Source of the DNA: Armatimonadota bacterium
Lineage (GTDB): Bacteria; Armatimonadota; Fimbriimonadia; Fimbriimonadales; Fimbriimonadaceae
Length of the DNA stretch: 64,000 bases
Direction of reading: 5' to 3'
NCBI GenBank assembly: GCA_031400935.1
Contig: JANNQV010000032.1
Coordinates: forward strand, 1-64,000
A program made the translations under genes and the position numbers. The notes under the pieces are model-generated. The model had not been told where the DNA came from. It did no database searches and saw nothing but the letters and a program-made list of their open reading frames with translations. Positions 41,451 through 64,000 of the stretch are shown one piece after another; position 1 is the stretch's first letter; every line of letters begins with the position of its first letter.

Positions 41451-42134
41451 GTGGCGAACAAAAAACTAAGGCGGGTTTCCAACAATGCCAATGTCGGGGC
41501 AGGACATGGCACCCTTGGGCGGGACGCCAAAGTCATATCTAAGCCGAACGCCCCGAATTGGGTAAAGCTTTTCATCGCCTTTCATCTCATCGCCATCATT
41601 ACGTGGTCTTTGCCCGGCACCCCGCCCGGCATTCGGAACGGAATGATTCCTGCCAGCGGAATGAACGGCTTGCTACTCGCTAACGAAAAATATGTGAAGA
41701 CCGCCGATCCGATTCGCACTTATTTATTGGTTACTGGCTTTTGGCAATATTGGGATATGTTTGCCCCCGATCCTTCCAATCAAGATTTGTGGGGAGATGC
41801 CGAAATCGTTCGACAAGATGGTTCGGTCGAGCACTATCAATATCCCCGAATGTATTTGCTCCCCATCCAAAAAAAGTTGGTGATGGAACGCCATCGAAAG
41901 TTCTTTGAACGTGCCAGTCAAGATTCGTTTGCCTATCTTTGGCCGCAATTTGCGAGGGTGATTGCCAGTGAAGTTGATCATAATCCCAAAAATCGCCCCG
42001 TAGAAGTGCGTTTGTTTCGGCATTGGCAGCAGATTCCGCCAGTCGGCGAACCAATGCCAACTGAGTACAAAAAATACAATTATTGGGTTGAGTTCATTGA
42101 CCGGAAAATGCTGGACAAGGACAAATTGCCATGA
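41451..42134 (+). CDS. SdpA/DUF5819-like membrane-anchored protein
   Basis: One N-terminal TM, WQYWDMFAPDP motif, ATGA-coupled to the HTTM gene. Confidence 0.65.
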   Translation: MANKKLRRVSNNANVGAGHGTLGRDAKVISKPNAPNWVKLFIAFHLIAIITWSLPGTPPGIRNGMIPASGMNGLLLANEKYVKTADPIRTYLLVTGFWQYWDMFAPDPSNQDLWGDAEIVRQDGSVEHYQYPRMYLLPIQKKLVMERHRKFFERASQDSFAYLWPQFARVIASEVDHNPKNRPVEVRLFRHWQQIPPVGEPMPTEYKKYNYWVEFIDRKMLDKDKLP

Positions 42135-47800: not shown

Positions 47801-49813
47801 TTAGGGTTGTCGTGGAACCAAGATGGAACGAACTCGATAAGCCTTTTTAGCAGGGCCATAGGTTGGATTTCCGTAAGAGTCTCGACCTGTCACTTCCCGA
47901 GTTTCGGAAAAAACTGTGGTCGCAATTCGAGCACCCGTTGGACTCCAAGTTGGCTCGATTTCGTCGCCTTTGACTACCTCCCCAACCTTCCTCGTCACGG
48001 CACCGCCCACAAGAATGGCATGCAGCTGCCAGTTCTTGTTTCTTTCAAGACAAAACGCCACTCGCGCTGAATCGGGACTCCAGGTCCCAGAGCCTTCGTG
48101 TTCTTTATCGGCGGTTTGCGTCAATCGCTTTGCCGGCAGGTCATTCGGAGATCTACCGTTCGCTAGATTTTCAGCATTTATCGGCATTATGTATAACTTG
48201 TGTGCTCCAGATCTGTCGCTTACGAACAGGATTGATCGTCCATCTGGGCTCCAGCGAGGAAATTCGTCATGTGCCGGATTTGCCGTTACCTGTACTGGTT
48301 TCAGGCTGGTGGTGGATGTCAAATAAATATCCCATTTTCCTTTGCTTCCTGATTTCCGGTGATAAGCAATCCACTTGCCATCGGGCGACCAAGTTGGTGC
48401 TTCTTCTTCTGCGGAATCTGTTGTAAATCGAGTTTCCTTTTTGGCTTTTACATCATAAATATAGATGTCCAAATTCTTATTTCTTTCAGAATGGTAGGCA
48501 ACTTTTGTACCGTCGGGGCTCCAAGCGGCACCGCCGTTTTCTCCGTCTTGCGTGATTCTTGAAACCACGCCATCACTGCCCGAAATGTAGATATTTTTTT
48601 TCTTATCTCGTGTGCTCTGAAATGCGATCCTACGCCCACCAGGATGCCAGGCCAGTTGGCGATTTTCGCCAGCTCCGGTTACCATCGTGACGTCAGGCCG
48701 TGAGTCTCTCAAGTCCACACAGGTGCTCACCATTAGTTCAACAATTACGGAATCAGGCCGCACCTTTAGTGCCCGCTCAAAATATCCTTGTGCACCAATT
48801 GGGTCACGTTTGTGGGCTAGCAATATCCCACCCAAATTTGTGAGCGCATCAAAGTTTCCAGGTTCTCGACCAAGGGCTCTCAAGAAGGCTCGCTCGGCTT
48901 GGTCAAACTGTCGTGACTCCATCAATTCAAATCCTTGTTTGATTGAATAGTCAGCAACATTTGGCTTCAAGTCCGCCGCCTTTCCCCACATAGTGGCTGC
49001 ATTTTCGTGGCGTCCCGCCCTTGAAAATATATCAGCTAGTTTTATGATCGGATCAAATTCGGTAGGTCGGAGCATTGTCGCCCGAATCAGCCTTGGTTCG
49101 GCTTCTTTTTCATTTTTGAGTTCAATCAGGCACAATGCGAATTGGTACGCGACATCATAGTTGTTGAGGTTCTTCGGTTCCGAAATTTCGAAATACTTTC
49201 TCGCTTCGCTATATTTTCGTTGCTTGAACTGGCACGTTGCAAGGTAGTACGCAGCGTACGAATCATCATTTTGTATTCGATTTGCTTCAAGCAGACGTGT
49301 TTCAGCATTGGCAAAATCTGATTTTTGCAAGGCAACTCTTCCATATCCTAAGAAGCCCTCTGCGTTATCTGCATCGAGTCGAACAGATTTTTCAAGTTCC
49401 TTTTCTGCGTCGTCAAATGCATTTAGTTCGAGCAAGGCAATTCCCGCATGGCTTAGCGCGACAGATTTTCGTTCGTTTGACACTCGGCGCGTGGCAGCCG
49501 AAATAAATGCGTCGGCGGCTTCTCTCCAACCTGCTGACTTGAATTTTTTGTCGCCTGCATCGAGCGATTTTGTGTATTCGCCGAAGTCTGTGGTTACCCC
49601 ACACCTTCCGCAAAACTTGTCGTCAGGTTCCAGCTTACGTGGACCTGCAGGTTCGCCTGGCTTCGCCAAATTCTTGCATTCTGCATTCAAGCAAAATACC
49701 TGGGTCTGGCTTGTCGGACTAACGACATGAATTGCAAGAGTCAAATCCATTGCATATATTTGACCGCAAAACCAAGTCATCGGTACGACCCAAAGAATCA
49801 ATCGTTTGTACAC
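47801..49813 (-). CDS. Exported protein: Cys ribbon + TPR array + TolB-like (PD40) beta-propeller
   Basis: Signal-like N-terminus, CLNAEC…FCGRCG, multiple TPRs, repeated WSPDG blades. Confidence 0.85.
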   Translation of the reverse strand: MYKRLILWVVPMTWFCGQIYAMDLTLAIHVVSPTSQTQVFCLNAECKNLAKPGEPAGPRKLEPDDKFCGRCGVTTDFGEYTKSLDAGDKKFKSAGWREAADAFISAATRRVSNERKSVALSHAGIALLELNAFDDAEKELEKSVRLDADNAEGFLGYGRVALQKSDFANAETRLLEANRIQNDDSYAAYYLATCQFKQRKYSEARKYFEISEPKNLNNYDVAYQFALCLIELKNEKEAEPRLIRATMLRPTEFDPIIKLADIFSRAGRHENAATMWGKAADLKPNVADYSIKQGFELMESRQFDQAERAFLRALGREPGNFDALTNLGGILLAHKRDPIGAQGYFERALKVRPDSVIVELMVSTCVDLRDSRPDVTMVTGAGENRQLAWHPGGRRIAFQSTRDKKKNIYISGSDGVVSRITQDGENGGAAWSPDGTKVAYHSERNKNLDIYIYDVKAKKETRFTTDSAEEEAPTWSPDGKWIAYHRKSGSKGKWDIYLTSTTSLKPVQVTANPAHDEFPRWSPDGRSILFVSDRSGAHKLYIMPINAENLANGRSPNDLPAKRLTQTADKEHEGSGTWSPDSARVAFCLERNKNWQLHAILVGGAVTRKVGEVVKGDEIEPTWSPTGARIATTVFSETREVTGRDSYGNPTYGPAKKAYRVRSILVPRQP

Positions 49814-49864
49814 GGTTATTAGTATGGGCGCGAAAAGCAGAAAATGTCTAGTCTTCTGACGAAA

Positions 49865-51619
49865 TCAGCGTGGCCGACGACGGCCGCAATTGCTACAAAA
49901 GTCGCTGTTAGGTCCATTAGACTGATCTTCATTGGTAGTATGGCCAGCCCTGTTGCGACACGTCCATCCTCTCGGAGCCGGATCGCCACCGCTTGATCCT
50001 GAACTGCCCGTTCCCTTCGTAACTTGAGCATTCACGGGTTCTCGTATTACCCTAGAACCAGATTCTGATCTGCTGATTTCCTTTCCATTTTCGTAATTGA
50101 CTTGGTACGTGATTTCGCGCTGACCTGTTCGGCCCCGCCGCGTAGTTTGAGTTTTCCCTTTGCGAAGAGAGCTTGAATTCGTGTACGTAGTTCTGAAAGG
50201 TATGGAAACAGTCTTGGTTTCGGATTTTGTCCCTGTAAAACCAGTTGCGACTTCCTTAGTTCCTCGCGTAACAACCTTTGCTACGGGCGGCAAAGTCACT
50301 GCTGGAGCGCCCTCGGGTTTGCGATCAATTTCAGTACCGCCTTCCTTGTCGAACGTGACTTTGTAAGTTACGGTCTGCTTCCCTTCCACACCTTCAGACT
50401 TCGTAACTTCTTGGCCCTTTTCCATAGTTGGGTCGTCTTCATAAGTTGTTTCAAATGGAATGGATTCTTCTTTCGTTTCGGTTGTTTCGAACGGTTGCCC
50501 AACAGGAATATCCGTGTTTACTGGGGAGTCCGTGTTTGCCGGGGAATCTGAAGGTTGGGGGTCTGGGACTGAAATCGAGTTTCCACCTGACCCAGTATTC
50601 GCTGGATTATCAATCGGAACTTTTCCGCCGCTAAGCATCTTGGGCACAACCATCGCACCAACTCCGATTGTAACAAGTGCCACGATCGCGATTACAATTG
50701 CAACTATAGGGGATTTGCGCTCTGCGGTCGCCGTTTCGTGAGATTTCGTGCTCTTGCGTCCCGGTGACGGAGTGTTTCCACCAACGCTTTCGCCAGTTTC
50801 TGACTTAGCAACGACTACATTCTTCGCAGTCACCTTGTCAAGCGCCAGTTTCATTTCATTTGCGCTGGAATATCGTTTTTCGGGCTTTTTGGCAAGTGCT
50901 TTTTCAATTACAGAACGGACGGCAGAGTTGGCCTCTTTCGGCAATGGCGGTGGTGGCGTATTCAAATGTTTTTGCATGATGGCAAGTGAATTTTCGCCTC
51001 GAAATGGTGTATATCCCGCTAAAATTTCATACATCACGATGCCGACGCTATAAATGTCCGTTCGGGAATCAACCGGAATGCCTTCTGCTTGTTCTGGGCT
51101 CATGTAAGCGGGTGAGCCAACAGTTTTTCCCGCAACGGTCACATTTCCGGTAGAGCCTGCATCAAGCCCTTTAGCGACGCCAAAGTCGAGAATTTTTGCA
51201 GTTCCATCCGTACAAAGATAAATGTTCGCAGGCTTAATGTCTCTGTGAACGACCTCCATCGAATGGGCTTTCTCCAGTGCCATTAGGACTTGTTTGCCAA
51301 TATGTACAGCTTCGGCCTCGGTCATTGGGCCACGAGCAAGCCGTTCTTTCAACGACTCGCCAGTCAAAAGTTCCATGACGATATACGGCTGGCCCTGCTG
51401 ATCCACGCCTGTATCGTAAACATGAACCACATTTGGGTGATTGATTCTTGCAGCCAGCCTCGCTTCGCGAAGGAACCTTTCTACTGCAGCTTCATCGCCA
51501 GCAACATGTGGAAGAATAAACTTGATCGCAACGTCGCGTTCAAGCGCGGTATGACGGCCCTTATAAACGGCCCCCATTCCTCCGGATTCGATAATTTCGC
51601 CCAATTCGTAGTTTTGCAT
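49865..51619 (-). CDS. Transmembrane Hanks-type Ser/Thr kinase with two G5 domains and a C-terminal Cys ribbon
   Basis: GGMGAVY, VAIK, HRDIKPAN, DFG, YMSPEQ; TM helix; two IPF[ER]TTY…G…G G5 repeats; WTC…H…FCSNCG. Confidence 0.93.
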   Translation of the reverse strand: MQNYELGEIIESGGMGAVYKGRHTALERDVAIKFILPHVAGDEAAVERFLREARLAARINHPNVVHVYDTGVDQQGQPYIVMELLTGESLKERLARGPMTEAEAVHIGKQVLMALEKAHSMEVVHRDIKPANIYLCTDGTAKILDFGVAKGLDAGSTGNVTVAGKTVGSPAYMSPEQAEGIPVDSRTDIYSVGIVMYEILAGYTPFRGENSLAIMQKHLNTPPPPLPKEANSAVRSVIEKALAKKPEKRYSSANEMKLALDKVTAKNVVVAKSETGESVGGNTPSPGRKSTKSHETATAERKSPIVAIVIAIVALVTIGVGAMVVPKMLSGGKVPIDNPANTGSGGNSISVPDPQPSDSPANTDSPVNTDIPVGQPFETTETKEESIPFETTYEDDPTMEKGQEVTKSEGVEGKQTVTYKVTFDKEGGTEIDRKPEGAPAVTLPPVAKVVTRGTKEVATGFTGTKSETKTVSIPFRTTYTNSSSLRKGKTQTTRRGRTGQREITYQVNYENGKEISRSESGSRVIREPVNAQVTKGTGSSGSSGGDPAPRGWTCRNRAGHTTNEDQSNGPNSDFCSNCGRRRPR

Positions 51620-51675
51620 CGCCTGTTAGGTATTTATACTGCTATTTCTGTCGGGAGTTTAGCACGTTGAAGCAT

Positions 51676-52803
51676 TCATTGTGGATTTTCAATCCATGCA
51701 ATTTCCATGCCGGAAGGCGTTTTGATCAAAAAAGCAAGTTTTGATCCATCGCCAGAATACCTCGCATAACTCTCATTGGAAGCTAAATCTGTGAGCCGTT
51801 GGCGATCGGTACCATTTTCATTCGTTGAAAAAAGATCAACAGTTCCAAAAACATCAGATTCGTATGCTATTCGGTATTTTGGCCCCCACGTTGGCCTTCG
51901 ACTCGCGTTTGTACCTTTTGAAATTTGAGTTTCTGGCCCTTTGCCCGATGAAGGCTTCGCGAAAATTTGAGGAGAAGAACTGCCTCTTTGGCCTTCAAAT
52001 GCGATGTGGCATCCTTTTGGGCACCAAGACGGACTTGATTCGTCTCCAGGCGTAGTTGCGAGGGCTACCAAATTCGTCCCGTCAGCATTAATGATGTATA
52101 AATCGCCTGGGCCCCGTTCAATTTGTTTGGAAACAAATACGATTCGCAGACCATCAGGGCTCCAACGGGGCTGCCACAAATATCCCTTCATTACTAACAG
52201 GCTACGGGGCGTGCCGCCAAAAATTGATACAATTTTGAGCTGAGGATCGCCTGAAAGTCCCTCGGACACGTAAACTACTTCCCTGCCGTTCGGACTGATG
52301 TCCGGATCGTATTCCGCAGCTTTCTCAGAAGTTAACTGGGTTTCGTGTGGCCCTTTTTCTGTCAGCTCTAATTTTAGAACATCTGTCGTTTCATTTTTGT
52401 TTGAACCAAACACAATTGTTTGACCCAAACGATCAATGCCGATGCTCCGAAGAACATCGGCACCAGTCGTCAGGATCTTATTCGCAGGAACAGGTTGGCT
52501 TCTGCCAATTACTGCAACATTTGGGTGCTCAGAAAACGGACTCACACCTGAAGCATCTGGGGCCGGAGGCTTTGGCTTTGAAATTGGTTTCGCGGCAAGT
52601 TTTAGGGTCGCTCCACATTTATCGCAAAATTTCCATGTTGCTTTTACGGCCTTTTTACATTTCGGACATTTTGTAAGCCCTTGAACCGTTGTAATTGTGG
52701 CGTTCGCAGATATTTTTATGATCGAGGAATTCTGGACAGCAGTTGATACGGCAATTGCGGCAAGGGCAACAACAGTTACCGACAAAAGAGTTCTGGTCAA
52801 CAT
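51676..52803 (-). CDS. Exported protein: Cys ribbon + TolB-like beta-propeller
   Basis: Signal peptide, CPKC…FCDKCG, PD40-like blades (PDISPNG, PRWSPDG, PSWCPKG). Confidence 0.85.
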   Translation of the reverse strand: MLTRTLLSVTVVALAAIAVSTAVQNSSIIKISANATITTVQGLTKCPKCKKAVKATWKFCDKCGATLKLAAKPISKPKPPAPDASGVSPFSEHPNVAVIGRSQPVPANKILTTGADVLRSIGIDRLGQTIVFGSNKNETTDVLKLELTEKGPHETQLTSEKAAEYDPDISPNGREVVYVSEGLSGDPQLKIVSIFGGTPRSLLVMKGYLWQPRWSPDGLRIVFVSKQIERGPGDLYIINADGTNLVALATTPGDESSPSWCPKGCHIAFEGQRGSSSPQIFAKPSSGKGPETQISKGTNASRRPTWGPKYRIAYESDVFGTVDLFSTNENGTDRQRLTDLASNESYARYSGDGSKLAFLIKTPSGMEIAWIENPQ

Positions 52804-52956
52804 GGTTTTTTAATTCAGGAAGCGATGTATTGAGTTAGACGAACAAAGTATGATCGAATTGCAGAAAGTTCCAGTAAAATGTCTAGGAAAGAGCATAAAG
52901 GATATTATGCGTCTTCGTCGAATCTCTTTGAATAACTTTTGATTTGGTCGTCACAA

Positions 52957-54657
52957 ATGAAAAATATTTCTAATTTTTTGTGGGTTGTTTTGATAATTGC
53001 AGCGGCGATTGCCCTTTCGGGTTGTGGCAAACCGTCGCCGTACATTCAATTTGGAGACATCTTTGCAAAAACCAAGATAGGTGATGAGCAGAATGTTCAG
53101 CAGTACGTTGTTTTCACAGATGAAAAAACGAAAAAACCGATCGGCGGCTTGAAAAGCAAGGATGTGATCGTAACAGTTGGCGGGCGTCGAGTGGACGCCA
53201 CTCTTATCCCTAGCGTCAGCGGAATCGGATTTGCATTACTTGTTGATCAAGGTGGTTCACAAAAGCATTTTGACGAATCTCGAAGGCTTGCGGAAAATAT
53301 TCTCCTCCGGCTCGGTGTCAAAAAGGACAAGGCTGCCATTTTGGGTGCAAATGGTGGAACACCCAGGTTTGTTTATGAAGAACCAGCTTTAGCGGGAGGG
53401 AAACTTTCAACGCTAAAGCGATCAGGCAAAGGGTTTGAAGATACGTTTGACGCAATTGAGAGGGTGAAAGCACACGGGCTCTCTGGACTTCCTGCAGGTT
53501 CGAAAACTGGCACGATTGCTATCGTGTCTGGCGTGCCGCTAAAAGTCAAGAACGTTCGCGCCGAAGAAGGCATTCCTGTTGTCGTTATTGATGTCGCAAA
53601 AACTGATACTGCTGCCCTGAAATCAATTTCTGACACTACTGGCGGAATGTATATTTTGTATGAGCCAAACAGTACGGACACGATTGCAACCAAGGCCATT
53701 GCGCAAATTGAATCCGTGCATGCTCACGCATACTCACTGAGTTTTAGAATCAAGCAAAGCGAATGGCCACTTAAATACTCCTTGACGCTAAAGAATGGTG
53801 AAATCAATTCGACGGGAGATTTTGTTTCGCCAGACATCACGAAACGATGGATGGTGGTCATCGGAATCGCCATAGCGATTCTCGTGATCGTCATCGTGGT
53901 TCTTATTTTTAAGCGAAAGCCGACTGGTGGACCTGAAATCACAAGAGGTGCGAAGTGGTCTGACGGTTCGCCGAGATCACCCGGAGCACCTTCGCACTAC
54001 GACGATGATGATGAGTCAACGCGAGTTGGCACAGACGCATACAAACCTACGGGTGGATATCAGTCTCAAGGATATTCGCCGCCGCCACAAAGTTCTTATG
54101 GATCGCCACAAAATTTGCAAGGTGGCGGCATGAGTCAAAATGCTGGGGACGTGACGTCTGGAGCAATGGACGTCATTCAAAACCCTACCGTTGGGAGTAG
54201 CTACTCGCCAGGTGGTGGTGGATATGCATCCAATGCAGGCGATTCGACGGTTGGAGATATTCAGGCGGTTGCACCAATGTCTGGCGGGCCCCCAGCAGGA
54301 GTATTCACCGCATTGATCTTAACAGTTGAATCAGGATCTGCAAGCGGACGAGAGATTCGCGTTTCAGATCGAACCAAGTTAGGCCGAGGCGATGCGTATG
54401 CTCATAGTATGGGCGCGATCGCGTTTCCTTCTGATCCGAGAATTTCGCGTGAACACGCGGAATTGATGCCTGAAAATCGGGCAGGCGCAACATTTTGGTC
54501 AGTCGCAAACCGAAGCTCAACAAATCAGACTTATGTAAACGATATGGCAATTGCAGGAACGCAAGTACTCAAGTACAATGACCGCATTCGAATTGGTGAG
54601 ACATATTTGCGCGTACTAAGCGCACCAGCTGCAGATGGAGATTCGACAATGCGATGA
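52957..54657 (+). CDS. Lipoprotein-signal / vWA-like / TM / FHA protein
   Basis: Lipobox LSGC; ALLVDQGGS…LKSISDTTGGMY (vWA-like, degenerate MIDAS); TM helix; Gly/Ser linker; FHA motifs LGR…ISREHA…STNQTYVN. Confidence 0.8.
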   Translation: MKNISNFLWVVLIIAAAIALSGCGKPSPYIQFGDIFAKTKIGDEQNVQQYVVFTDEKTKKPIGGLKSKDVIVTVGGRRVDATLIPSVSGIGFALLVDQGGSQKHFDESRRLAENILLRLGVKKDKAAILGANGGTPRFVYEEPALAGGKLSTLKRSGKGFEDTFDAIERVKAHGLSGLPAGSKTGTIAIVSGVPLKVKNVRAEEGIPVVVIDVAKTDTAALKSISDTTGGMYILYEPNSTDTIATKAIAQIESVHAHAYSLSFRIKQSEWPLKYSLTLKNGEINSTGDFVSPDITKRWMVVIGIAIAILVIVIVVLIFKRKPTGGPEITRGAKWSDGSPRSPGAPSHYDDDDESTRVGTDAYKPTGGYQSQGYSPPPQSSYGSPQNLQGGGMSQNAGDVTSGAMDVIQNPTVGSSYSPGGGGYASNAGDSTVGDIQAVAPMSGGPPAGVFTALILTVESGSASGREIRVSDRTKLGRGDAYAHSMGAIAFPSDPRISREHAELMPENRAGATFWSVANRSSTNQTYVNDMAIAGTQVLKYNDRIRIGETYLRVLSAPAADGDSTMR

Positions 54658-55094
54658 GTATTGAAAACGCCCGACCTTTTGATCCAAACAACCGTCCCCT
54701 AAAGGGCGAGTGGATTCACATTTCAGCGGAAAGTGAAACCGCCACTATGCCCTCATTAGAGCAGGGTGTTGATGCAAGTTTAACTCAAGGGCACGATGTC
54801 GTCAAACGTGAAACGAGTGCAAAGCAAGGTTCGAAAATTTGGATGTACGTAGCAATTGCGTTGATTGTGATTGTCATCTCGTTGGTGGTTGTAATATCTC
54901 GAGGCAAATTAAGTAAAGGGACATTCGGCTCCACTTCATCGGAATCAAGTCCGAGTATTTCTGAATCTTCAAAGAGTGATTCACAAAGTCTTGGCGATGA
55001 TGCGCAAGCCAAAACTGGGGAATCGGACGCTTCTAAACCAGAAGTATCTAAAGGTGATTCAGAAGGGGAAAGCAGTCCAAGCGGCCCACAATAA
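54654..55094 (+). CDS. Small single-pass membrane protein with Ser/Glu-rich tail
   Basis: ATGA-coupled to the previous gene; one TM helix. Confidence 0.75.
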   Translation: MSIENARPFDPNNRPLKGEWIHISAESETATMPSLEQGVDASLTQGHDVVKRETSAKQGSKIWMYVAIALIVIVISLVVVISRGKLSKGTFGSTSSESSPSISESSKSDSQSLGDDAQAKTGESDASKPEVSKGDSEGESSPSGPQ

Positions 55095-55112
55095 TTAGAT
55101 TGAGAAAACGTT

Positions 55113-56498: not shown

Positions 56499-57232
56499 TG
56501 AGTAGCAAGAAAAATGGAGCCAGCTTTGGACTTTGCGCCAAACAAGGCAACTCGTCGAAAGTTCTGATGGACTATTGCGACGCTTATACATCGCCGGAAG
56601 GATCGCTGCTTTTAGCTCTTTCGGATGGGATGGGCGGCTATGGCGGTGGCGAAGTTGCAAGCGCGATTGCGGTTCAAACGACCATCGAAGTTTTTCAACG
56701 TTCTGGTTTTTCAAATGTGAGACAATCCTTGGCGGAGGCCATTCAATTGGCTAATCAACGCATCGTTGAAAAGCAACGAACGGACCCAGGGCTAGCTCAA
56801 ATGGGCGCAACTATCGTGTTGGCAGTGGCATCAGAAGGCGAGCTAACCATCGCTCATGTTGGCGATAGCCGAGCCGTTCTATTTCGCGGAGAATACTTGC
56901 TTCGCTTAACGACAGATCATCTTGTCATTGTTGAGCGAGAAGGTGCGTTGGACAATGGTGCGAAGAGCAATCCATTGTTTAAAGGAAAATCCAACGTCCT
57001 TTCGCGATATCTGGGAGGACCACCTCCCATTCCCGATTTCTATGAAATGAAACTTGAAGCAGGAGACGTAGTTTTTCTAGCGTCGGACGGAATCACGGAG
57101 TATTTGTTAGAAAGCAGAATCAGTCGAATTGTTCGGGAGGAGGCTCCCGAAGTGGCGGCAGTGAGCATAGTTGATGAAGCGATTCGCAATCGCAGTCATG
57201 ACCATTGCTCGGCAGCAATTGGAAAAATCTAA
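56498..57232 (+). CDS. PP2C/PPM family Ser/Thr phosphatase
   Basis: SDGMGG…GEVAS, HVGDSRA, LASDGI, HDHCS; TGATG-coupled to the kinase. Confidence 0.92.
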   Translation: MSSKKNGASFGLCAKQGNSSKVLMDYCDAYTSPEGSLLLALSDGMGGYGGGEVASAIAVQTTIEVFQRSGFSNVRQSLAEAIQLANQRIVEKQRTDPGLAQMGATIVLAVASEGELTIAHVGDSRAVLFRGEYLLRLTTDHLVIVEREGALDNGAKSNPLFKGKSNVLSRYLGGPPPIPDFYEMKLEAGDVVFLASDGITEYLLESRISRIVREEAPEVAAVSIVDEAIRNRSHDHCSAAIGKI

Positions 57233-57249
57233 TCCTTTAAGGGGGAAAA

Positions 57250-58119
57250 ATGAAAAAAACACTAACTAAAAATGTAGCTGTAGAGGCGAAACCTACTGCA
57301 GCAGTCAATGGAGTGCCCACCGAGGCACCGAAACCAACACCAGCGAAGAATGCTGTTGCGACTAAGAGGCCGGCTGCTAAGAAGCGGTCAGCAACCAAAA
57401 GAGTTGTGGCAAAGAAAGCTGCACCTGCTAAAAGAGCAGTTGCCAAAAAGGCTCCAGCCAAAAGAGTTGTGGCAAAGAAAGCTGCCACTGCTAAAAGAGC
57501 AGTTGCCAAGAAAGCGCCAGCCAAAAGAGTTGTGGCAAAGAAAGCTGCACCTGCAAGAACCACTCGCAAAGCCGTAGCGAAGCCCGCCGCGAGAACTAGA
57601 GTGGCAAAGCCAGTAGTGGCGCGCAGGGCGGGAAAAGCGGCTCCGAAAGGACGCGTAACGCAAGCGAGACCCGCTGGCAAGAAGATGTCGAAAGTTGACG
57701 CAAATAGCCTAGTCGCAGATTCGTTGGCTTCACTGAAGTCAGTCGAGCGATCGGCTCGGAAACTTTTGACTGAAATCCATCATCGGGAAGTCGAGATTGC
57801 GAAACTAAAGAGTCAAATTGTTGATCTGAATTCCTCTTTGAAGAGAGAGAAAAAGGCCAACAAGCGACAAGGCAGATCAGCTGAAAAAGTGCTGCTCAGA
57901 GCTCACGCATCGGTGAAACGACATGCGGCAAGGGCGAAGGAAGCAGCTGCGGCGGCTCCGGTTGCCAAGGCACCCAAAGTCAAGTTTTCGACACATTTGT
58001 CGAGAGCTGTTAAGAAATCGCCCGTGGCAAAGCCGAATGTGAAGAAACATGCGGCAAAGCACGCCAAGCACAGCAAAATCGCAGCCATGGGTAAGGAACT
58101 TGTCGCAAAGCTAGGTTAG
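57250..58119 (+). CDS. Histone H1-like Lys/Ala/Arg-rich protein with a coiled coil
   Basis: KRVVAKKAAPAKRAVAKKAPA repeats, highly basic; AAGGGGG RBS. Confidence 0.8.
   Translation: MKKTLTKNVAVEAKPTAAVNGVPTEAPKPTPAKNAVATKRPAAKKRSATKRVVAKKAAPAKRAVAKKAPAKRVVAKKAATAKRAVAKKAPAKRVVAKKAAPARTTRKAVAKPAARTRVAKPVVARRAGKAAPKGRVTQARPAGKKMSKVDANSLVADSLASLKSVERSARKLLTEIHHREVEIAKLKSQIVDLNSSLKREKKANKRQGRSAEKVLLRAHASVKRHAARAKEAAAAAPVAKAPKVKFSTHLSRAVKKSPVAKPNVKKHAAKHAKHSKIAAMGKELVAKLG
57395..57554 (+). repeat. In-frame 63-bp tandem repeat (about 2.5 copies)
   Basis: CCAAAAGAGTTGTGGCAAAGAAAGCTGC recurs at 57395, 57458 and 57521. Confidence 0.9.
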
Positions 58120-58134
58120 ACGCCGAGGAATGTA

Positions 58135-61100
58135 TTGAACAATCCAGACGACCAGAACATTGATCAGTTAGAAGAAGAGGCTTCGTCCGATACCGAAGAA
58201 TTGCTGGATGAAGAGTCCGACGATTCCGAGTTAGTTGAGGACGAAGCCGATTCTGAAGAATTGGAAGATGAAGCAGCGATCGAGGAAGAGCCAGAAGAGG
58301 ACGTTGAAGACGATGTTGAAGAAGTCGTCGAAGACGAAATCGTAGCTGACGACGTTGTCGAAGCCGAAGCGGAAGTCGAATCCGAGGTGGCCGTAACGCC
58401 CATGGCTGATGAAGAGGAGACGGAAGATCCCGCTCTTGCGGCTTTGATGGCTGGCGTTCACGCTTCTGATGCTGAGCCCGACAAGAACGACTCGAACGAG
58501 ACGTCTGAAGCGGCTAGCGAAGATGAGGACGGAGATTTGCCAATTGCAGAAATTGCAGCTGGAACCATTGCTCTTGGCGTTGCCGCCATGGCAATGGATG
58601 CTCAGCAGCAAGAACGTGACGCTAAGAAGAAACTGCAAGAAGAAGAGCGGATCGCCAAGGAAAAGGAACGAGAACAAAAACAGCTAGAGCGTGAAGCGGC
58701 GCAAAAGGCGTCCGCCGAAGCGCGAGAACAAGCGTCACAAGCAAGATCCGAAGCCAATCGCCTTCGAGCACCTGAAGGGGCTACAGATGCCGTACCGCCT
58801 GCTCGGCCGGAACGACCTGATAGGCCCGCTCCGCCAGCTTTTCCTCGGCCGCCATCTAAAGTGGCAGGGTTAGCTGTTCCGCCGCCTTCGGGATTTGGAG
58901 AAAGTGAAATCGGTGAGGCAGAGCCAAGTAACGAAAAAGACGGTTCGTTGCCAGATGCATCCTCCGTTCCCGTTACTGCTCCTATATCTTCGGCTTCGGT
59001 GCAGTCGAAACCAGTAGCCTTGTCGGGAGACATGGCAGAGAGGGAGGCTGCTAGAAGTGCGGCAATTGAAGCCAAAAAGGCCGAATCGGAGGCCAAGCGT
59101 TTGGCGCACCAAGCCATGCTGGATCAAAAGGCCGCCGAACGAAAAGCGGCGAACGAAAGTCGTCTCGGCGCTCGTGAAAGTTCCGGGGCAAGTCATGCTT
59201 CCGACTTTTCAGATTTGAGAGGCCCGGCTCCTGGCGCTCCTGCAGCAGGCGCGCCGATGAACGATAAGATGGCGAAAATGGCAGCACTTGCCGCCGGTGC
59301 CGGAAGTGTAGCGGGTGCTCTGACGACAAAATTGGCGCAAGCGAAAGCAGGGCAAGGCAGCCCGGTTGCTGCAGTTGCTGGGGCAAGTCCCGGCGCTCCT
59401 GCTGCGCCGCTTCCTCCTGGCGCAAACGATTATCTGGACATTATTCAACACTTGGATGCCCGTGCCGTTTTTCACAGTGAATATGCGGATGTCAAGCAGA
59501 AATACGAATCTCGACTGCTTGTGGGAACAGAAGTGCTTCAGTGCACCTTGGTCGGGCTTAACGCTGGACTTATTGATTCTGTGTATCGCAAGCTTTCAAA
59601 GCTTCCCGAACTGATGAGTCTCATTGACTGGAAGTATGTCGCCCTTGAACCTGTAATCGTTGTTTCAGACGCTGGACAAAAGCGCGATGTTCGCATTGAC
59701 GCAAGTTCTACGATCACAATAGGCCGTGATCCATCCAGTACGATTCCCATTCAATCTAGTTTTGTTTCGCGAAACCATGCCCAGATTGCAAACGCCTCAA
59801 AAAACCCGCATTTACCGCCACAATGGGTTTTAAAAGATCTGGGATCAACCCATGGAACGACTTTGAACGGCACGCCAGTTCGTGAATCAATGCGATTCAA
59901 TTCCGATGATAAAATAGAATTGGGAAGGGGTTTCGCCGCGACTGAGTACCCGAGTATCCAGCTCATCAGCCGCGCAATTCCTTACGGTCGAGACGATCTG
60001 ACCCGAATGGTTATTGACGTTGACCTGGTCATTTGTGTTGTTGAAGCGGACCGCGAGTTTGAAGGCCAGGCAAATCTGCTCAAGAACTTATCTGACGTTC
60101 AAAAGGTCGGGGGACTCTTAGTTGTCGCCGTATCTGGAAGTGGCCCCATTGAGGATTCGATGGAAGCGAATCTTGACGAACTTCGACATGCTTCCCGCGT
60201 TCTAAAGAGCACAGAGCTTACAAGATATTTGGCGGCGATTGATTCCGAAGACATTTCCACTGATGCCGAATGGTTACCTGGAGTAACGGAATTCATTGAT
60301 GGCTTCCGTCAACGTTCCCATGCAAATATCATTGAAAAAAGAAAGCAGATAACAAGAGAAGAGGTTGTCAATGAAATACGAAGCACTGGAAGCCGACTAG
60401 AGGACAGCCTTAGCAAAAAGTTAGAAGACTCAGAGCGCAATTTACAACGAGTTCAAGACGAACTTTCTATGGCACCTAGAAACTTGGGTTCTGCTGAGGT
60501 TCTACGAGACGATACTTTTAAAGCACTAAAGCAGACTTTGGACGACGATACAAACTTTTTCAGTGATCAGCTTAGGCCGGATAGCCTAAGTTACTATGCG
60601 GAGCGACTAGGTAAACAGCTTCTTACTAGGACTGAAGGTAGTACTCGAATGGAGTTGAACCTTGTTGAGCCGAATAACCTCCAAGATCCGCACCGTTGGA
60701 TGAATAGCGAACTGAGCATCTACGCTAGGCGTCATTTTGACCAGTTAGTCGCTCAAATCACGGGTCCCAGCCGTGATCCGCACGGGGTTATTGGCGTCTA
60801 TCAGAACCTGAGAGAGCTGTTGGGCGGGCATGAGAAGCTTAGAACTTCTGATCTTTTTTCCGACGAGAACTATTCTCGATACACACTAACCGATCTGAAT
60901 ACTCAGATGGCAAATGCATTAAGCACGAACTTTGTGGAATACGAGGCTACTTCGCAAGCCAAAATTGACAACATGATTATGTTCGTAATAAACAAAATGC
61001 GATTTGCTGTCATGTTTTATATGTCAATGTTCTCCATTATTGCTGTAGTTCTTGGCATGAGCCGTGGAAAGTTGAATAAGGCCTTTTCGGGCTCAATGGG

Positions 61101-61539
61101 AACATTTTGGTATTTCATTGCTGTTACAGCACTTATAATAGTTGCGTATTTTACTGTTCGCTCTTATAGGATGAACAAAAAAGACGTTATTGAGGAAGAA
61201 ATTGAAAAACTGCGCGACCAGTTGATCAAACATTATCAATCGGTGGCCAAGAAATTCGTGGAAGACGCAAAGCGAGTTCTCTCGGTCCACCTTTCGACGA
61301 TTGAGTCCAAAATTAAGCAAGATATGAGCACTCTTGGTAGCTCTCGAATGACAGAATCCGTCGCGACACGAAACAATCCGGTTTTGGATCAAGCGAAGAA
61401 GGAGCGCGACGACACACAAGCTCTGATTTATGCGATTGGACAGGAAAGAACCTGGGCGGAATCCGCCCAAAGTGCCTACACGCCATCGCCATTTGTGGCA
61501 GTGGCACCTGCAAGGCCGACAAGAACGCCGGCCCGGTAG
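58135..61539 (+). CDS. 1134-aa protein: polyacidic N-terminus, low-complexity linker, FHA domain, helical trunk, TM hairpin and coiled coil (pseudo-dynamin-like)
   Basis: D/E-rich first ~135 aa; FHA motifs IGRDP…VSRNHA…DLGSTHGT; two hydrophobic helices near the C-terminus; GAGG RBS and TTG start. Confidence 0.75.
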   Translation: MNNPDDQNIDQLEEEASSDTEELLDEESDDSELVEDEADSEELEDEAAIEEEPEEDVEDDVEEVVEDEIVADDVVEAEAEVESEVAVTPMADEEETEDPALAALMAGVHASDAEPDKNDSNETSEAASEDEDGDLPIAEIAAGTIALGVAAMAMDAQQQERDAKKKLQEEERIAKEKEREQKQLEREAAQKASAEAREQASQARSEANRLRAPEGATDAVPPARPERPDRPAPPAFPRPPSKVAGLAVPPPSGFGESEIGEAEPSNEKDGSLPDASSVPVTAPISSASVQSKPVALSGDMAEREAARSAAIEAKKAESEAKRLAHQAMLDQKAAERKAANESRLGARESSGASHASDFSDLRGPAPGAPAAGAPMNDKMAKMAALAAGAGSVAGALTTKLAQAKAGQGSPVAAVAGASPGAPAAPLPPGANDYLDIIQHLDARAVFHSEYADVKQKYESRLLVGTEVLQCTLVGLNAGLIDSVYRKLSKLPELMSLIDWKYVALEPVIVVSDAGQKRDVRIDASSTITIGRDPSSTIPIQSSFVSRNHAQIANASKNPHLPPQWVLKDLGSTHGTTLNGTPVRESMRFNSDDKIELGRGFAATEYPSIQLISRAIPYGRDDLTRMVIDVDLVICVVEADREFEGQANLLKNLSDVQKVGGLLVVAVSGSGPIEDSMEANLDELRHASRVLKSTELTRYLAAIDSEDISTDAEWLPGVTEFIDGFRQRSHANIIEKRKQITREEVVNEIRSTGSRLEDSLSKKLEDSERNLQRVQDELSMAPRNLGSAEVLRDDTFKALKQTLDDDTNFFSDQLRPDSLSYYAERLGKQLLTRTEGSTRMELNLVEPNNLQDPHRWMNSELSIYARRHFDQLVAQITGPSRDPHGVIGVYQNLRELLGGHEKLRTSDLFSDENYSRYTLTDLNTQMANALSTNFVEYEATSQAKIDNMIMFVINKMRFAVMFYMSMFSIIAVVLGMSRGKLNKAFSGSMGTFWYFIAVTALIIVAYFTVRSYRMNKKDVIEEEIEKLRDQLIKHYQSVAKKFVEDAKRVLSVHLSTIESKIKQDMSTLGSSRMTESVATRNNPVLDQAKKERDDTQALIYAIGQERTWAESAQSAYTPSPFVAVAPARPTRTPAR

Positions 61540-61662
61540 GCGGAGGGGTTTTGAGGTTTTGAGGTTTTGATTCGCCTGCAAAGTCCAAATTTCTCTAGAT
61601 TTCTTTCTACCAAACCACAACATTCTAACTTGATAGATTACGGCGAAAGAGGAGTTCATGTT

Positions 61663-61860
61663 CCCCTCTCCCTGGAGGAACGAGAGGGAGAGGGGGCAGG
61701 GGGTGAGGGTTCCGGAAAGTCTTGATTGAACTTATCTCATAGCTCCTTCAATCAAATGGAGCCTAGGAATCTGAAACATGAATCCGAGCGACCCTCTATC
61801 CCCTGCCCCTTTCTCCCTAATCGCGAAGATTCCATGGCGACGGATTAGGGAGAAAGGGGA
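61663..61860. repeat. Inverted pair of CCCCTCTCCC/GGGAGAGGGG palindromic elements
   Basis: Copies at 61663-61709 and 61792-61860 in opposite orientation. Confidence 0.7.
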
Positions 61861-61888
61861 ATTCGGAAATGACAACTCTCGTAACAAC

Positions 61889-61922
61889 AAAAAATTCCCC
61901 CCGCAATGCAGGGGGAATTTTT
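61889..61922. terminator. Bidirectional intrinsic terminator
   Basis: AAAAAATTCCCCCCGCAATGCAGGGGGAATTTTT between convergent operons. Confidence 0.88.
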
Positions 61923-61938
61923 GTAAACGTTTCCGATC

Positions 61939-62853
61939 TTAGAAAATCTCGGAAATGATCTCTTCAAGAGTAGTGAAGATTCCAATTACAGTCTCAACAC
62001 CGGCGTTGCAAGCGCTTGCCGCATCGCACATCGCGTCCTTCACTTCGGAGATTTGACTTCCGCGTTCCGTCATGATGTTTCCTGCTTCTTCAGTTCGTTC
62101 ACGAGTCTCGTTTCCTCGATCGTGAAGTTCCTGGCACTTGTTTTGCGTCTCATTATGAGTTTCTTCAACAGTCTGTCGGCTGTATTCGCTGACTTCCTCA
62201 GTAGTAGCCTCGACCTGCTGGTTCAACTCGTCTACGAGCTGTTCCATCGTGCTGGTGAAATCGTCAACAGTGCTTTGCACCATATCTGAAAAATCGCCAG
62301 AGATACGATCTTGGAGCGAAGAAACTCGTTCCTGCATCTGCTCTCCGATGCTAGACACGTGCTCGGTAGACTGGTCAGCCAATCTTTCGCACCAATTGGT
62401 TGAGTTCTCTTGGAACTGAGACATGAGGTCAATGATCTGCTCGAAGAAACTCTCAGAATGCTCTTCGGTTTCATCGTTCGCCTCTTCAACCTTTGTCTTC
62501 GCTTCGTCCGTGGATTCGGTAAGGGATTCAAACTTTTCGTTGGTTTCCTTCACCTTGTCTGCGAACTTTTCGGTCATCTCTTCGAGCTTCTCTTTGGACT
62601 TGTTGAACTCTTCCTTCGCATCTTTGACTTGATTTTCGAGTTCTTCATGTCGCTGTTCGAGTTCGCTTTTCAGCTGCTCGATCTTGTCCATCAGCTCTTT
62701 GATTTTATCTTCCGATTCTTGTTCTTCATCGTCTATTTTATGTCGAAAGTCATTAACTTCCTCATGCAAGCCTTCGATATCTTTTTGAACGCCTTCGTAG
62801 ATTTTCAGTGTTACATCTGCTTCCGCTTCTATTAGTTCTGCTGGGTTTGCCAT
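61939..62853 (-). CDS. Acidic all-helical apolipoprotein-like protein
   Basis: 304 aa, E/D/Q-rich amphipathic helices, hydrophobic C-terminal helix, no signal peptide, AGGAG RBS. Confidence 0.8.
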   Translation of the reverse strand: MANPAELIEAEADVTLKIYEGVQKDIEGLHEEVNDFRHKIDDEEQESEDKIKELMDKIEQLKSELEQRHEELENQVKDAKEEFNKSKEKLEEMTEKFADKVKETNEKFESLTESTDEAKTKVEEANDETEEHSESFFEQIIDLMSQFQENSTNWCERLADQSTEHVSSIGEQMQERVSSLQDRISGDFSDMVQSTVDDFTSTMEQLVDELNQQVEATTEEVSEYSRQTVEETHNETQNKCQELHDRGNETRERTEEAGNIMTERGSQISEVKDAMCDAASACNAGVETVIGIFTTLEEIISEIF

Positions 62854-62877
62854 TGTTTTTCTCCTGGACCTATGTCC

Positions 62878-63795
62878 TTACATGCACCCCATGAGGCCGC
62901 CGACCATATCGGTCAGACCTTCGAATACATCGCTTAGCGAATCGAGAATCTCTTCAACCCCTGAGTTAGAGCTGTTGCCTTCTTCGCTGGATCCGAATAT
63001 CTGATCAATTGCATCGTTGCCCACTTCAGTCAACTGGTCAACAAAATCTGTGATCAGTTGTTTGAGGGCGTCCTCGATCTGTTGCTGAGCCATGTCAATG
63101 ACTGAATCAATTCCACTTACGATGGCTTCTTCGGTCATTTGCTGCAAGGAATCTTTCATCGTTCCTGATGTATCTTCCATGGTTGACTTGGCTTTGTCAA
63201 ACTCGCTCGAGGTTCGATCTTGGTTGTCTGCCGTGTGGCTTTGGAAATCCGAAGTCGTGCTTGACGCATCGTCTTGCCTCGACTTGGTATCGTTGTGGAA
63301 GTTTTCGACGTCTCCCTTGAAGCTGTCGTGAGTGTCCGCTTGTTTGCTCTTCACATCACCCAGGGTCTGCGTATGGTTATCGAAGTGATCCTTCGTTTGG
63401 CCTTGGCGATCCTTCAGCTTTTCGTTAGTTTGATCGTGCGATTCCTTGAGGTTGTCCGAGCTTTCTTGAAGATCTTTCAGCTTATCCTTTGCATCAGATT
63501 CGCTTTCGTCAATCTGCTTACGCATATCTCCGAACTTCTCAGAAAGTTCATCGGCCTCGTCTTTCAGCTCATCGAGCCATTCTTCGGCTTCGCCTTGCAT
63601 CTTTTGTAGTAGCTCTTCAAGTTCATCGAGGGCTTTCTCGGCGTCTTCGCCAAGTTGCTCCAAATTGCTCTTGAATTCTTTTACTTCGTTTATCGCTTCT
63701 TCTATGTCGTCGGCCAAGTGGCCTACATCGTTGGGAACTTGTATTGCCGTATCCAACATATCGGTTACGGTTTGACTATCTGCTGCTCCTGCCAT
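62878..63795 (-). CDS. Acidic all-helical apolipoprotein-like protein
   Basis: 305 aa with the same composition and layout as its neighbour; identical RBS-start sequence. Confidence 0.8.
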   Translation of the reverse strand: MAGAADSQTVTDMLDTAIQVPNDVGHLADDIEEAINEVKEFKSNLEQLGEDAEKALDELEELLQKMQGEAEEWLDELKDEADELSEKFGDMRKQIDESESDAKDKLKDLQESSDNLKESHDQTNEKLKDRQGQTKDHFDNHTQTLGDVKSKQADTHDSFKGDVENFHNDTKSRQDDASSTTSDFQSHTADNQDRTSSEFDKAKSTMEDTSGTMKDSLQQMTEEAIVSGIDSVIDMAQQQIEDALKQLITDFVDQLTEVGNDAIDQIFGSSEEGNSSNSGVEEILDSLSDVFEGLTDMVGGLMGCM

Positions 63796-63815
63796 TGTTT
63801 TTCTCCTCTAATTTT

Positions 63816-64000
63816 CTAGAATGCGTCCATCAACATCTTGATGAACTCGACAACCTCTTTTACGACCATGAGGGCTGGCAACCAAGGCGAGATCGCACCA
63901 GTTATCGAAGCGCCAATGCCCATCTGGACTGTGCACTCGATAATCGTAGTGATCATTTCTTGGATGGCTTCTTGGATCATTCTCATAAAGAGCTCCTTGA
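63816..64000 (-). CDS. C-terminal 60 aa of a third helical protein, truncated by the window end
   Basis: Manual translation: KELFMRMIQEAIQEMITTIIECTVQMGIGASITGAISPWLPALMVVKEVVEFIKMLMDAF*. Not in the ORF track. Confidence 0.75.
   Translation of the reverse strand, partial: KELFMRMIQEAIQEMITTIIECTVQMGIGASITGAISPWLPALMVVKEVVEFIKMLMDAF

Follow-up and report, generated by a model that had tools for sequence, protein, structure and literature searches.

The locus described here lies at the right-hand end of a 64,000-nucleotide stretch of DNA from an Armatimonadota bacterium (GenBank assembly GCA_031400935.1, contig JANNQV010000032.1, positions 1 to 64,000), hereafter the window, which is the first 64 kb of the 170 kb contig C32 of genome G000 (2.97 Mb, 95.6% complete). 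It encodes Hanks-type kinases, FHA proteins, a PP2C phosphatase, a large FHA-bearing membrane protein and a set of acidic helical proteins, and we read it as one inherited module that may form a phospho-threonine-gated membrane assembly. Gene calls were based on the open reading frame (ORF) listing and on Pfam, NCBIfam and PADLOC scans, and the contig was also retrieved from 61 to 81 kb. By the ORF listing, Pfam and NCBIfam, all of the genes listed in an initial annotation of this DNA are present where it had placed them. The locus has three blocks: block 1 is transcribed leftward, block 2 (six genes) is divergent from it and rightward, and block 3, the helical operon, is leftward and convergent with block 2. 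The features are as follows, with positions beyond 64000 counted along contig C32 (aa, amino acids; TM, transmembrane; TPR, tetratricopeptide repeat; pI, isoelectric point):

47801-49813, minus strand: zinc-ribbon, TPR and PD40 (TolB-like) beta-propeller protein, 670 aa (PD40 8.3e-47 and TPR families by Pfam; TolB propeller model below cut-off).
49865-51619, minus strand: receptor Hanks kinase, 584 aa (Pkinase 2.6e-53, TM helix 305-323, two G5 domains 9.4e-36, C-terminal zinc ribbon).
51676-52803, minus strand: protein with a signal/TM segment, zinc ribbon and PD40 (TolB-like) propeller, 375 aa (PD40 5.7e-20, zinc-ribbon families), divergent from block 2.
52939-54657, plus strand: ectodomain-FHA bitopic membrane protein, 572 aa (lipoprotein-type signal, ectodomain of about 280 aa, TM helix 306-324, Thr/Gly-rich cytoplasmic linker, C-terminal FHA 5.9e-9).
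54654-55094, plus strand: small single-TM protein, 146 aa (TM helix 64-82, no Pfam family; 4-bp overlap with the gene before it).
55113-56498, plus strand: N-terminally TM-anchored FHA and Hanks kinase protein, 461 aa (Pkinase 3.6e-38, FHA 3e-16; motifs HCDLKPDN, DFG and APE).
56498-57232, plus strand: PP2C Ser/Thr phosphatase, 244 aa (PP2C 2.5e-15; motifs DGMGG, GDSR and SDGI; 1-bp overlap with the gene before it).
57250-58119, plus strand: basic Lys/Ala-rich protein, pI 11.9, with a C-terminal coiled coil (NCBIfam hist_H1_lk 32 bits, cut-off 80).
58135-61539, plus strand: FHA membrane protein of 1134 aa (FHA 5.3e-17 at residues 527-597, TM helices 957-975 and 990-1008).
61890-61922, both strands: bidirectional intrinsic terminator common to the convergent operons (perfect hairpin, 15-bp stem with 7 GC pairs, A5 and T5 flanks).
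61939-62853, minus strand: hel1, acidic (pI 4.2) all-helical protein of 304 aa, last gene of the helical operon (sub-threshold apolipoprotein and coiled-coil matches only).
62878-63795, minus strand: hel2, acidic helical paralog of 305 aa (paralogy to hel1 9e-9).
63816-64748 (63816-64000 in the window; L002:2816-3748), minus strand: hel3, acidic helical paralog of 310 aa with a conserved hydrophobic, Gly-rich C-terminus.
64782-65693 (L002:3782-4693), minus strand: hel4, helical paralog of 303 aa, beyond the window end.
65805-66569 (L002:4805-5569), minus strand: p254, basic protein of 254 aa without a family, first gene of the helical operon.

With overlaps of 4 and 1 bp and gaps of 15-18 bp (in order, -4, 18, -1, 17 and 15 bp), block 2 is the tightly coupled operon that the initial annotation had described, and the hairpin bears out the bidirectional terminator proposed between blocks 2 and 3. 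The convergent helical genes are likewise real, and where a trio had been reported there are four paralogs and a 254-aa gene. A sister contig (L023) has the same gene order. Measured against it, the ratio of nonsynonymous to synonymous substitution rates (dN/dS) was 0.05-0.15 in 12 of 12 genes, with synonymous divergence (dS) of 0.25-0.90; the ratio was 0.051 for the ectodomain-FHA gene, 0.105 for the 375-aa zinc-ribbon/PD40 gene, 0.077, 0.070, 0.066 and 0.072 for hel1 to hel4, and 0.052 for p254. Therefore, the low-complexity ORFs are real genes under purifying selection. The dS values rise from the helical operon (0.25-0.49) through the kinase operon (0.57-0.77) to the block 1 gene (0.90); the lower values in the helical operon could stem from strong expression, by way of codon bias, or from exchange that happened more recently. 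The 350-bp spacer between the large gene and the terminator contains G/C-rich inverted repeats at 61655-61870 (GAGGGGGCAGGGGGTGAGGG-type and its complement), which look like repetitive extragenic palindromic or miniature inverted-repeat transposable elements; Rfam gave no match at gathering thresholds over 44-64 kb, these repeats included.

Genomic comparison found the module in two further genera. In genome G127, which belongs to another genus of the same family, the whole arrangement of blocks 2 and 3 is present and convergent, with a p254-like gene first in the helical run. Reciprocal BLAST paired 10 of the 11 genes of the two blocks one to one, in unchanged order and at 23-51% identity. 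In block 2 the identities are 26% for the ectodomain-FHA protein (6e-30), 29% for the N-terminal part of the small TM protein (3e-7), 40% for the FHA-kinase (3.9e-110), 51% for PP2C and 26% for the large protein; in the helical operon they are 27% for hel1 (7.9e-41), 26% for hel2 (2.9e-32), 33% for hel3 (4.4e-49), 23% for hel4 (1.2e-32) and, at the same position, 28% for p254 (5.5e-12). The positional counterpart of the basic protein, g183, is also basic and has a coiled coil, with no BLAST match. Such clean 1:1 orthology indicates that the four helical proteins are old, distinct subunits and not recent copies. Glycine-cleavage and other genes flank the G127 module; neither PsyrTA, a gene pair next to the module in G000, nor block 1 stands beside it, and the best G127 match to the G5-kinase is on another contig. 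A zinc-ribbon and TM protein with an 'NAD glycohydrolase translocation F5/8 type C' domain (1.8e-13) is encoded beside this module (L055:5924-6781).

In genome G322, of a third genus, genes for an ectodomain-TM-FHA protein, a small TM protein, a G5-kinase and a propeller protein lie on one side, and a zinc-ribbon/TPR gene and hel4-hel3-hel2-hel1, in the order seen in G000, run divergently from them up to the contig end. The helical matches are 2e-10 for hel1, 1e-16 for hel3 and 4.9e-10 for hel4, with hel2 matching the G127 copy at 5e-13; the small TM protein matches its G127 copy at 1.3e-6, and the zinc-ribbon and TPR gene stands in place of p254. No kinase of the FHA type was seen in the G322 locus, where the kinase position is held by a G5-kinase orthologous to that of block 1 (41% identity, 8e-96). 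The propeller and TPR genes of block 1 also have counterparts there, a zinc-ribbon and WD40 propeller protein (h413) in the matching place and a zinc-ribbon and TPR protein (h417). Block 1 types adjoin the module in two of the three lineages (G000 and G322), and two of the three genera encode PP2C and the basic coiled-coil protein. No copy of the C-terminal part of the large protein was detectable in G322. The locus encodes a 645-aa protein that, with an FHA domain at 123-167 and a pair of TM helices, is laid out like the short members of the large-protein family (see below); it scored 10.5 bits, in register, against the family C-terminal profile in a one-target test and 1.8e-4 by BLAST to family member P0008 in a 9-sequence database, and it is probably a member of that family.

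The gene contents and orders compared here indicate that block 2 has stayed with block 3 despite deep sequence divergence and one switch from a convergent to a divergent arrangement. The co-occurrence of blocks that the initial annotation had looked to is borne out for blocks 2 and 3, in the same order in G127 and rearranged in G322, and for block 1 in two of three lineages. The predicted core in the three genera comprises an ectodomain/FHA protein, a small partner protein with a single TM helix, a membrane-bound Hanks kinase, a dynamin-like membrane protein with an FHA domain and four acidic coiled-coil proteins. We conclude that the module is real, conserved, rare and undescribed, and that it contains a protein architecture and a coiled-coil family that are both new; its function we infer below.

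Conservation of the arrangement also bears on whether the two operons might be functionally separate and adjacent only by descent, the kinases regulating something else and the helical proteins forming a cytoskeletal, storage or stress set (apolipoprotein-like or late embryogenesis abundant-like). They are indeed distinct transcription units with their own terminator, their dS values differ (0.25-0.49 versus 0.57-0.77), and G000 has a solo hel3 paralog in an unrelated metabolic context (contig C61, 46333-47259, minus strand; 2e-51, 34% identity along its full length), where it lies amid glyoxalase genes and genes of sugar metabolism, with no other module gene. However, the adjacency has been kept between G000 and G127 at 23-33% identity of the helical genes and in G322 through the rearrangement, and among the 301 genomes searched hel3 was found only in those with an adjoining ectodomain-FHA gene. 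We consider functional separation of the operons unlikely, and treat blocks 2 and 3 as one module.

Few genomes carry this module. A full-length large protein was found in 2 of 401 Armatimonadota genomes (G000 and G127), other matches reaching at most 72 bits and covering the FHA region only; among 41 related genomes it is full length only within the same genus. Since only one of eight sampled genomes of genus g37 has the large protein, the module is accessory. Among 301 genomes searched, hel3 occurs in three (G000, G127 and G322), all of which hold the adjoining ectodomain-FHA gene. Scans of genome and metagenome contigs returned only close copies of the window locus, and a 97% identical copy of the large protein is found on another Armatimonadota contig. 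In phage, plasmid and viral collections, hel3 was found neither in phages (tblastn) nor in viral contigs, and the C-terminal part of the large protein was not found in plasmids (tblastn). A tblastn search of plasmids with family member P0011 gave one match, a 248-aa FHA protein on an Acaryochloris plasmid, which was rejected as a family member.

The large protein has a predicted layout of a disordered, acidic and Pro-rich N-terminus (residues 1-430), a G-domain-like region (about 440-740) split by the FHA domain, a helical stalk, a two-TM hairpin (957-1008) and C-terminal helices. A HMMER scan of 1.8 billion representatives with the FHA-free residues 600-1134 as query found 11 proteins at E<=1e-3, and an FHA domain lies upstream of the matched region in seven of the eight new members scanned. 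Because an FHA-free query retrieves proteins with an upstream FHA domain, the large protein belongs to a real family. According to the family alignment, the layout is about 110 N-terminal residues, the FHA domain, about 500 mostly helical residues with the two-TM hairpin, and C-terminal helices; the long forms (911-1137 aa) have an extra disordered N-terminus. A word-seeded search of 5.8 billion clusters with the FHA-free part found six proteins, and a family-alignment profile search of the same set gave 21 rows, seven of them known members and 14 others covering about 7-19% of the query, in which FHA proteins dominate and no new member appeared.

An AF2 (AlphaFold2) model of residues 420-1134 has a strand-helix unit ahead of the FHA domain, a beta-alpha-beta-alpha-beta unit behind it and helices over model residues 294-694. 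When the model was searched with Foldseek, all 10 matches at E<=1e-3 were dynamin-like (IniA at 5.1e-6, Cj-DLP1/2, Mgm1 and BDLP), and LeoA matched at 0.036. With VIA-align, for which Z 7-8 is typical of models without a match according to the tool, model residues 23-317 without the FHA insert aligned to Galpha-i at Z 12.6 (155 aligned, 3.7 A), to ARL2 at Z 12.5 (157/189, 3.3 A) and to Arf at Z 11.8 (149/175). Look-alikes of the large protein in a protein atlas were dynamin-family clusters, with scores of 0.77-0.82 across the atlas searches that serve as leads only. The GTP motifs G1 (GxxxxGK[ST]), G3 (DxxG) and G4 ([NT]KxD) are absent in all members of the family alignments. At the corresponding positions the family has VGLNAGLID (SRFPILAQ in distant members) for the P-loop, SRAIPYG for G3 and AVSGSG or VDTSS for G4, in a register that is our own reading and that the alignment backs for P0011 only. 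In Smith-Waterman comparison with a dynamin-like protein, the G3-G4 regions came into the expected register for the distant member P0011 only (z 2.9, 9 of 500 shuffles).

Several results tell against a dynamin-like large protein. The two TM helices, the helical stretch and the dynamin-like Foldseek list go with a poor model (pLDDT, predicted local confidence, 50.5; pTM, predicted TM-score, 0.28), and the Foldseek TM-scores to dynamins are 0.08-0.21, with root mean square deviations of at least 30 A. Pfam Dynamin_N (PF00350) did not match the large protein at E<=0.01, and across the family at E<=10 it gave E 0.37 in one of 11 members. Alignment of the family with an Armatimonadota dynamin-like protein (L025) by hhalign gave no G-domain match, only a C-terminal helix at a probability of 1.7%; in a PDB sequence-profile search with the family, FHA matches alone were significant and Era reached E 0.18. 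In the Smith-Waterman test the window protein itself aligned out of the expected register (z 2.2), and P-loop regions were not significant. The scores that place the 645-aa G322 protein in the family are also weak. On balance, we consider it probable that the large protein is dynamin-like, with a dead G-domain that carries an inserted FHA domain. In the model, the insert would lie between the first strand-helix unit and the rest of the G-domain, roughly where G-alpha has its helical-domain insert. The term pseudo-dynamin used in the initial annotation is thus supported at the fold level, by Foldseek and VIA-align on a low-confidence model and by the absent GTP motifs, whereas profile tests see no GTPase.

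Bacterial dynamins are known as GTP-driven membrane remodellers. Compared with the bacterial dynamin-like proteins IniA (6j72/6j73), Cj-DLP1/2 (5owv/5oxf), Nostoc BDLP (2j69) and LeoA (4aur), the large protein, on its low-confidence model, would have the same order of parts, namely a G-domain fold, helical stalk, membrane hairpin and returning helices. It differs from them in lacking the G1/G3/G4 motifs and a Dynamin_N match, and in its added FHA insert and 430-residue disordered acidic/Pro-rich N-terminus. A full-text search of the literature library used turned up no report of a dynamin-like protein that combines a dead G-domain with an inserted FHA domain.

In the signalling genes, the key motifs of the kinases and PP2C are intact, including VAIK, HRDIKPAN, DFG and SPE in the block 1 G5-kinase, and GR...SRxH is present in all three FHA domains. 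The motifs thus predict that an active-type Ser/Thr kinase, PP2C and FHA domains with phospho-threonine-binding residues are encoded together. PP2C matched the Stp1/IreP model of NCBIfam at 3.9e-43, under the cut-off of that model. In the hydropathy/topology scan, the FHA, kinase and PP2C domains and the helical proteins are cytoplasmic, and the ectodomain, G5 and propeller parts are outside. The small TM protein has a conserved cytoplasmic N-terminal motif, R-P/D-F/Y-D-P-x-x-R-P-x-x-x-E-W-V/I-H/R-V/I. The linker of the ectodomain-FHA protein contains repeated D-x-T-hydrophobic-G motifs ([DEN]xT[VIMLT][GA]), six in G127, two in G000 and one in G322; the six of G127 were reached by 0 of 1000 shuffles and the two of G000 by 26 of 1000. 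A von Willebrand factor A (vWA) label had been given to the ectodomain and is not upheld: Pfam VWA matched at E 0.046 and 14.4 bits, under the cut-off of 23.8, in two of four orthologs, and the ectodomain profile gave nothing meaningful against PDB. For the basic protein described as H1-like, the likeness holds for composition only, and membership of a real histone H1-like family was rejected (32 bits against a cut-off of 80).

The four helical proteins (303-310 aa, pI 4.1-4.2, Asp+Glu 26-27%) are weak paralogs of one another (E 9e-9 to 2e-4, 21-23% identity). They have no signal peptides, and hel1, hel2 and hel4 have no TM segments; the hydropathy scan flagged a hydrophobic segment only in the hel3 of G127, inside the Gly-rich C-terminus common to all five hel3 copies. 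Against the Pfam Apolipoprotein family (PF01442), hel1 to hel4 scored 67.8, 29.8, 38.6 and 30.5 bits, all under the cut-off of 90, and the best profile matches of the family are the exchangeable apolipoproteins ApoA-IV (3s84, 4.9e-12) and ApoA-I (1.7e-8), with which it has long amphipathic helices in common. Unlike apolipoproteins, the hel proteins are bacterial, cytoplasmic and strongly acidic, and have no fold match: a search with an AF2 model of hel3, which consists of four long helices (the longest of about 120 residues), gave no match at E<=0.001. A close-relative search with hel1 gave none at E<=1e-3 among 1344 candidates.

Profile matches of this kind also bear on the suggestion that the helical proteins are exported or injected, as tape-measure-like, translocator-like or type VII secretion system (T7SS) substrates, and that the FHA and kinase genes regulate export machinery whose genes lie elsewhere. 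In support, hel1-4 are matched by PHROG tape-measure families (E 1e-8 to 5e-5), hel1 matches Pfam WXG100 at the cut-off (27.3 bits), and protein-atlas look-alikes of hel3 are phage clusters (0.78-0.82, a lead only). On the other hand, apolipoproteins, chemoreceptor (MCP) proteins and designed helical bundles match equally well, the NCBIfam WXG100 model gives 24.8 bits against a cut-off of 44.85, only one of the four paralogs matches and hel1 is 304 aa long, hel1, hel2 and hel4 have neither signal peptide nor TM segment, and no gene for a secretion ATPase, sheath, tube, baseplate or EccC/EssC lies within 20 kb. We regard export as very unlikely. More generally, none of the core genes of a type VI secretion system (T6SS), T7SS/Esx or extracellular contractile injection system (eCIS), that is sheath/tube/baseplate, EccC/EssC or true WXG100 pairs, was found by Pfam and NCBIfam among 27 proteins over 44-78 kb of the contig, and a T6SS, T7SS or eCIS locus was rejected. 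This agrees with the initial annotation, and the DNA beyond 64000 contains PsyrTA and ordinary genes. An association with an active dynamin, FtsK or Hsp70, which the annotation had looked for, did not materialise: no such gene was found by Pfam and NCBIfam in the locus or downstream of the helical run, and a Dynamin_N search of genome G000 returned only P-loops of ordinary GTPases and no active dynamin partner.

Following the helical operon, at 66637-69557 of C32 (L002:5637-8557), PADLOC identified a complete PsyrTA (RqlHI), with PsyrA (DprA-like) at 3e-59 and PsyrT (RecQ-helicase/phosphoribosyltransferase) at 3.9e-234, full length; an assignment of these genes to DprA/ComF competence was rejected on this result. 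PsyrTA has been described as a toxin-antitoxin defence pair (10.1101/2022.05.11.491447), and on the sister contig it adjoins the module as well. Beyond it follow ordinary genes (T2SSF, RibD, ABC transporter and L25). An unusual fusion of a sigma factor and a diguanylate cyclase (423 aa, sigma-70 regions 2, 3 and 4 with a C-terminal GGDEF) is encoded at 71733-73004 (L002:10733-12004).

A defence neighbour raises the possibility that the module is a conflict system against phages, epibionts or competitors, in which the kinase/FHA part would sense a threat and the helical proteins, above all hel3, would act as membrane-disrupting effectors causing growth stop or death. Such a system would fit the patchy distribution (large protein in 1/8 g37 genomes, hel3 in 3/301), PsyrTA next to the module in G000 and L023, and the conserved hydrophobic C-terminal segment of hel3; dynamin-like defence operons exist, and Esr is reported to be a kinase/FHA threat sensor. 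Divergence is also fast, at 23-51% identity against 70% for the neighbouring T2SSF, but this argument is weak because L25 is only 28% identical between G000 and G127. However, PADLOC-DB 2.0 gave no family for the ectodomain-FHA, basic and large proteins, the kinases matching generic kinase models and the helical proteins the coiled-coil parts of ZorA, JetC, LmuB and LeoB at 14-40 bits; no toxin, nuclease or pore domain was recognisable in the locus by Pfam and NCBIfam; the modules of G127 and G322 lack a PsyrTA neighbour and have metabolic flanks; and the phage, plasmid and viral collections searched held no relatives. We therefore think an effector-bearing conflict system improbable, if less so than separate operons or export.

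The reading we prefer is that the locus is one inherited accessory multi-gene module for a phospho-threonine-gated membrane assembly, probably with a protective role, and we give it a probability of roughly 0.45. The membrane machine would be built from the helical proteins and the large FHA protein, with the envelope as input, as domain topology and synteny suggest. Because the module is rare within genera and fast-diverging, we take it to serve in conditional protection, as a response to damage to or attack on the envelope, and not in housekeeping. A conditional role linked to conflict is favoured by the patchy distribution, by the rapid divergence and, in one lineage, by the neighbouring PsyrTA.

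The mechanism that we propose is drawn, step by step, from synteny, protein topology and domain content. A signal at the envelope or cell surface would be sensed by the ectodomain proteins, with the G5-kinase and the propeller/TPR proteins contributing where block 1 is present, and would turn on the kinase. The kinase would phosphorylate threonines, for example in the D-x-T-hydrophobic-G repeats of the ectodomain-FHA linker; the three FHA domains would recognise the modified residues and draw the membrane proteins into a cluster. Within the pseudo-dynamin, the lost nucleotide switch would be replaced by phospho-threonine binding. The cluster might then recruit or release a hel1-4 hetero-oligomer at the inner membrane face, by which the membrane would be stabilised, remodelled or sealed, and PP2C would reset the system.

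Some observations detract from this picture. The strong acidity of the helical proteins speaks against direct binding to anionic lipids, and their profile matches amount to generic helix likeness, since designed bundles, chemoreceptor proteins, the ZorA tail and phage tape-measure proteins match equally well. The hel3 model is poor (pLDDT 63, pTM 0.24). The shuffle statistic of the linker motif is biased because the motif was defined after these sequences had been viewed. A conflict-related role is held back by the lack of a defence-model or toxin match and by the metabolic flanks in the other two lineages.

Sets of kinase, PP2C and FHA proteins control machines such as the T6SS (PpkA-PppA-Fha1) and mycobacterial cell-wall synthesis (PknB-PstP-FhaA/FhaB), and a few bacterial machines are already known to be switched in this way. 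As in those sets, a membrane Hanks kinase, PP2C and FHA readers are encoded together in the module, and FhaB/FipA models were among the NCBIfam matches of locus proteins; in contrast, the module has no T6SS or wall-synthesis genes, and two of its three FHA proteins are integral to the membrane. A full-text search of our literature library for vWA/FHA/PP2C/kinase systems found no paper matching this gene set.

Two published themes come close to it. The Esr pathway of Actinomycetales (bioRxiv 2026, PMC13622651) is reported to have surface beta-propellers, a vWA protein, one or more Ser/Thr kinases, a phosphatase and an FHA output protein with variable domains, and is read there as a sensor of cell-surface attack. 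Propeller, kinase, phosphatase and FHA output parts are also found in the module. The module differs from Esr in having no MoxR ATPase (Pfam found no AAA/MoxR family in the locus), only a sub-threshold vWA match and no Esx/T7SS genes, and the output of Esr is transcription or Esx secretion, whereas that of the module would be a pseudo-dynamin and four coiled-coil proteins. Esr also belongs to another phylum, probably with another type of envelope. The GAP1-N2 kinase/PP2C/vWA theme (Kaur et al. 2020, PMC7159879) is described as having a membrane-proximal GTPase part, an active kinase fused to zinc ribbons or TM segments, PP2C and vWA, and as a regulated cytoskeleton-like assembly. It is reported only in actinobacteria and defined by GAP1 and FNIII-repeat proteins, neither of which was seen in the module, and the GTPase-like protein of the module differs in being inactive by its motifs and FHA-bearing.

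A bolder version of the preferred reading, that the module represents a new class of kinase-gated membrane machine with an FHA phospho-threonine reader in a dead G-domain, in which a Hanks kinase and not GTP drives a four-subunit coiled-coil polymer on the membrane, is speculative and in our view doubtful. If true, the dynamin scaffold could be re-wired from nucleotide to phosphorylation control, four coiled-coil proteins without a known family would gain a testable place in a membrane response, and the short family forms in other metagenomes would carry the principle beyond Armatimonadota. The module would also extend to a second bacterial phylum the recent theme in which propeller, kinase and FHA proteins sense threats at the cell surface. 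Being small and self-contained, and available in three diverged versions, it is suited to heterologous reconstitution.

Two minor observations concern other parts of genome G000. On contig C61, which carries the solo hel3 paralog, 41062-41742 (L057:2062-2742) encodes a 226-aa protein with a sub-threshold match to the anthrax lethal factor N/C-terminal domain (6.4e-5, 23.2 bits, cut-off 27.4), adjoining a PEP-CTERM matrixin-type metalloprotease. Upstream of block 1, the window encodes a 525-aa secreted protein without a Pfam family (46026-47603, plus strand) and a paralog of it (39579-40961, minus strand). This family is multi-copy in G000, with at least eight loci by tblastn and copies also on contigs C27, C51, C62, C13 and C28; its N- and C-terminal parts are conserved, and it has weak phage tail-fibre matches (PHROG 1.8e-9).

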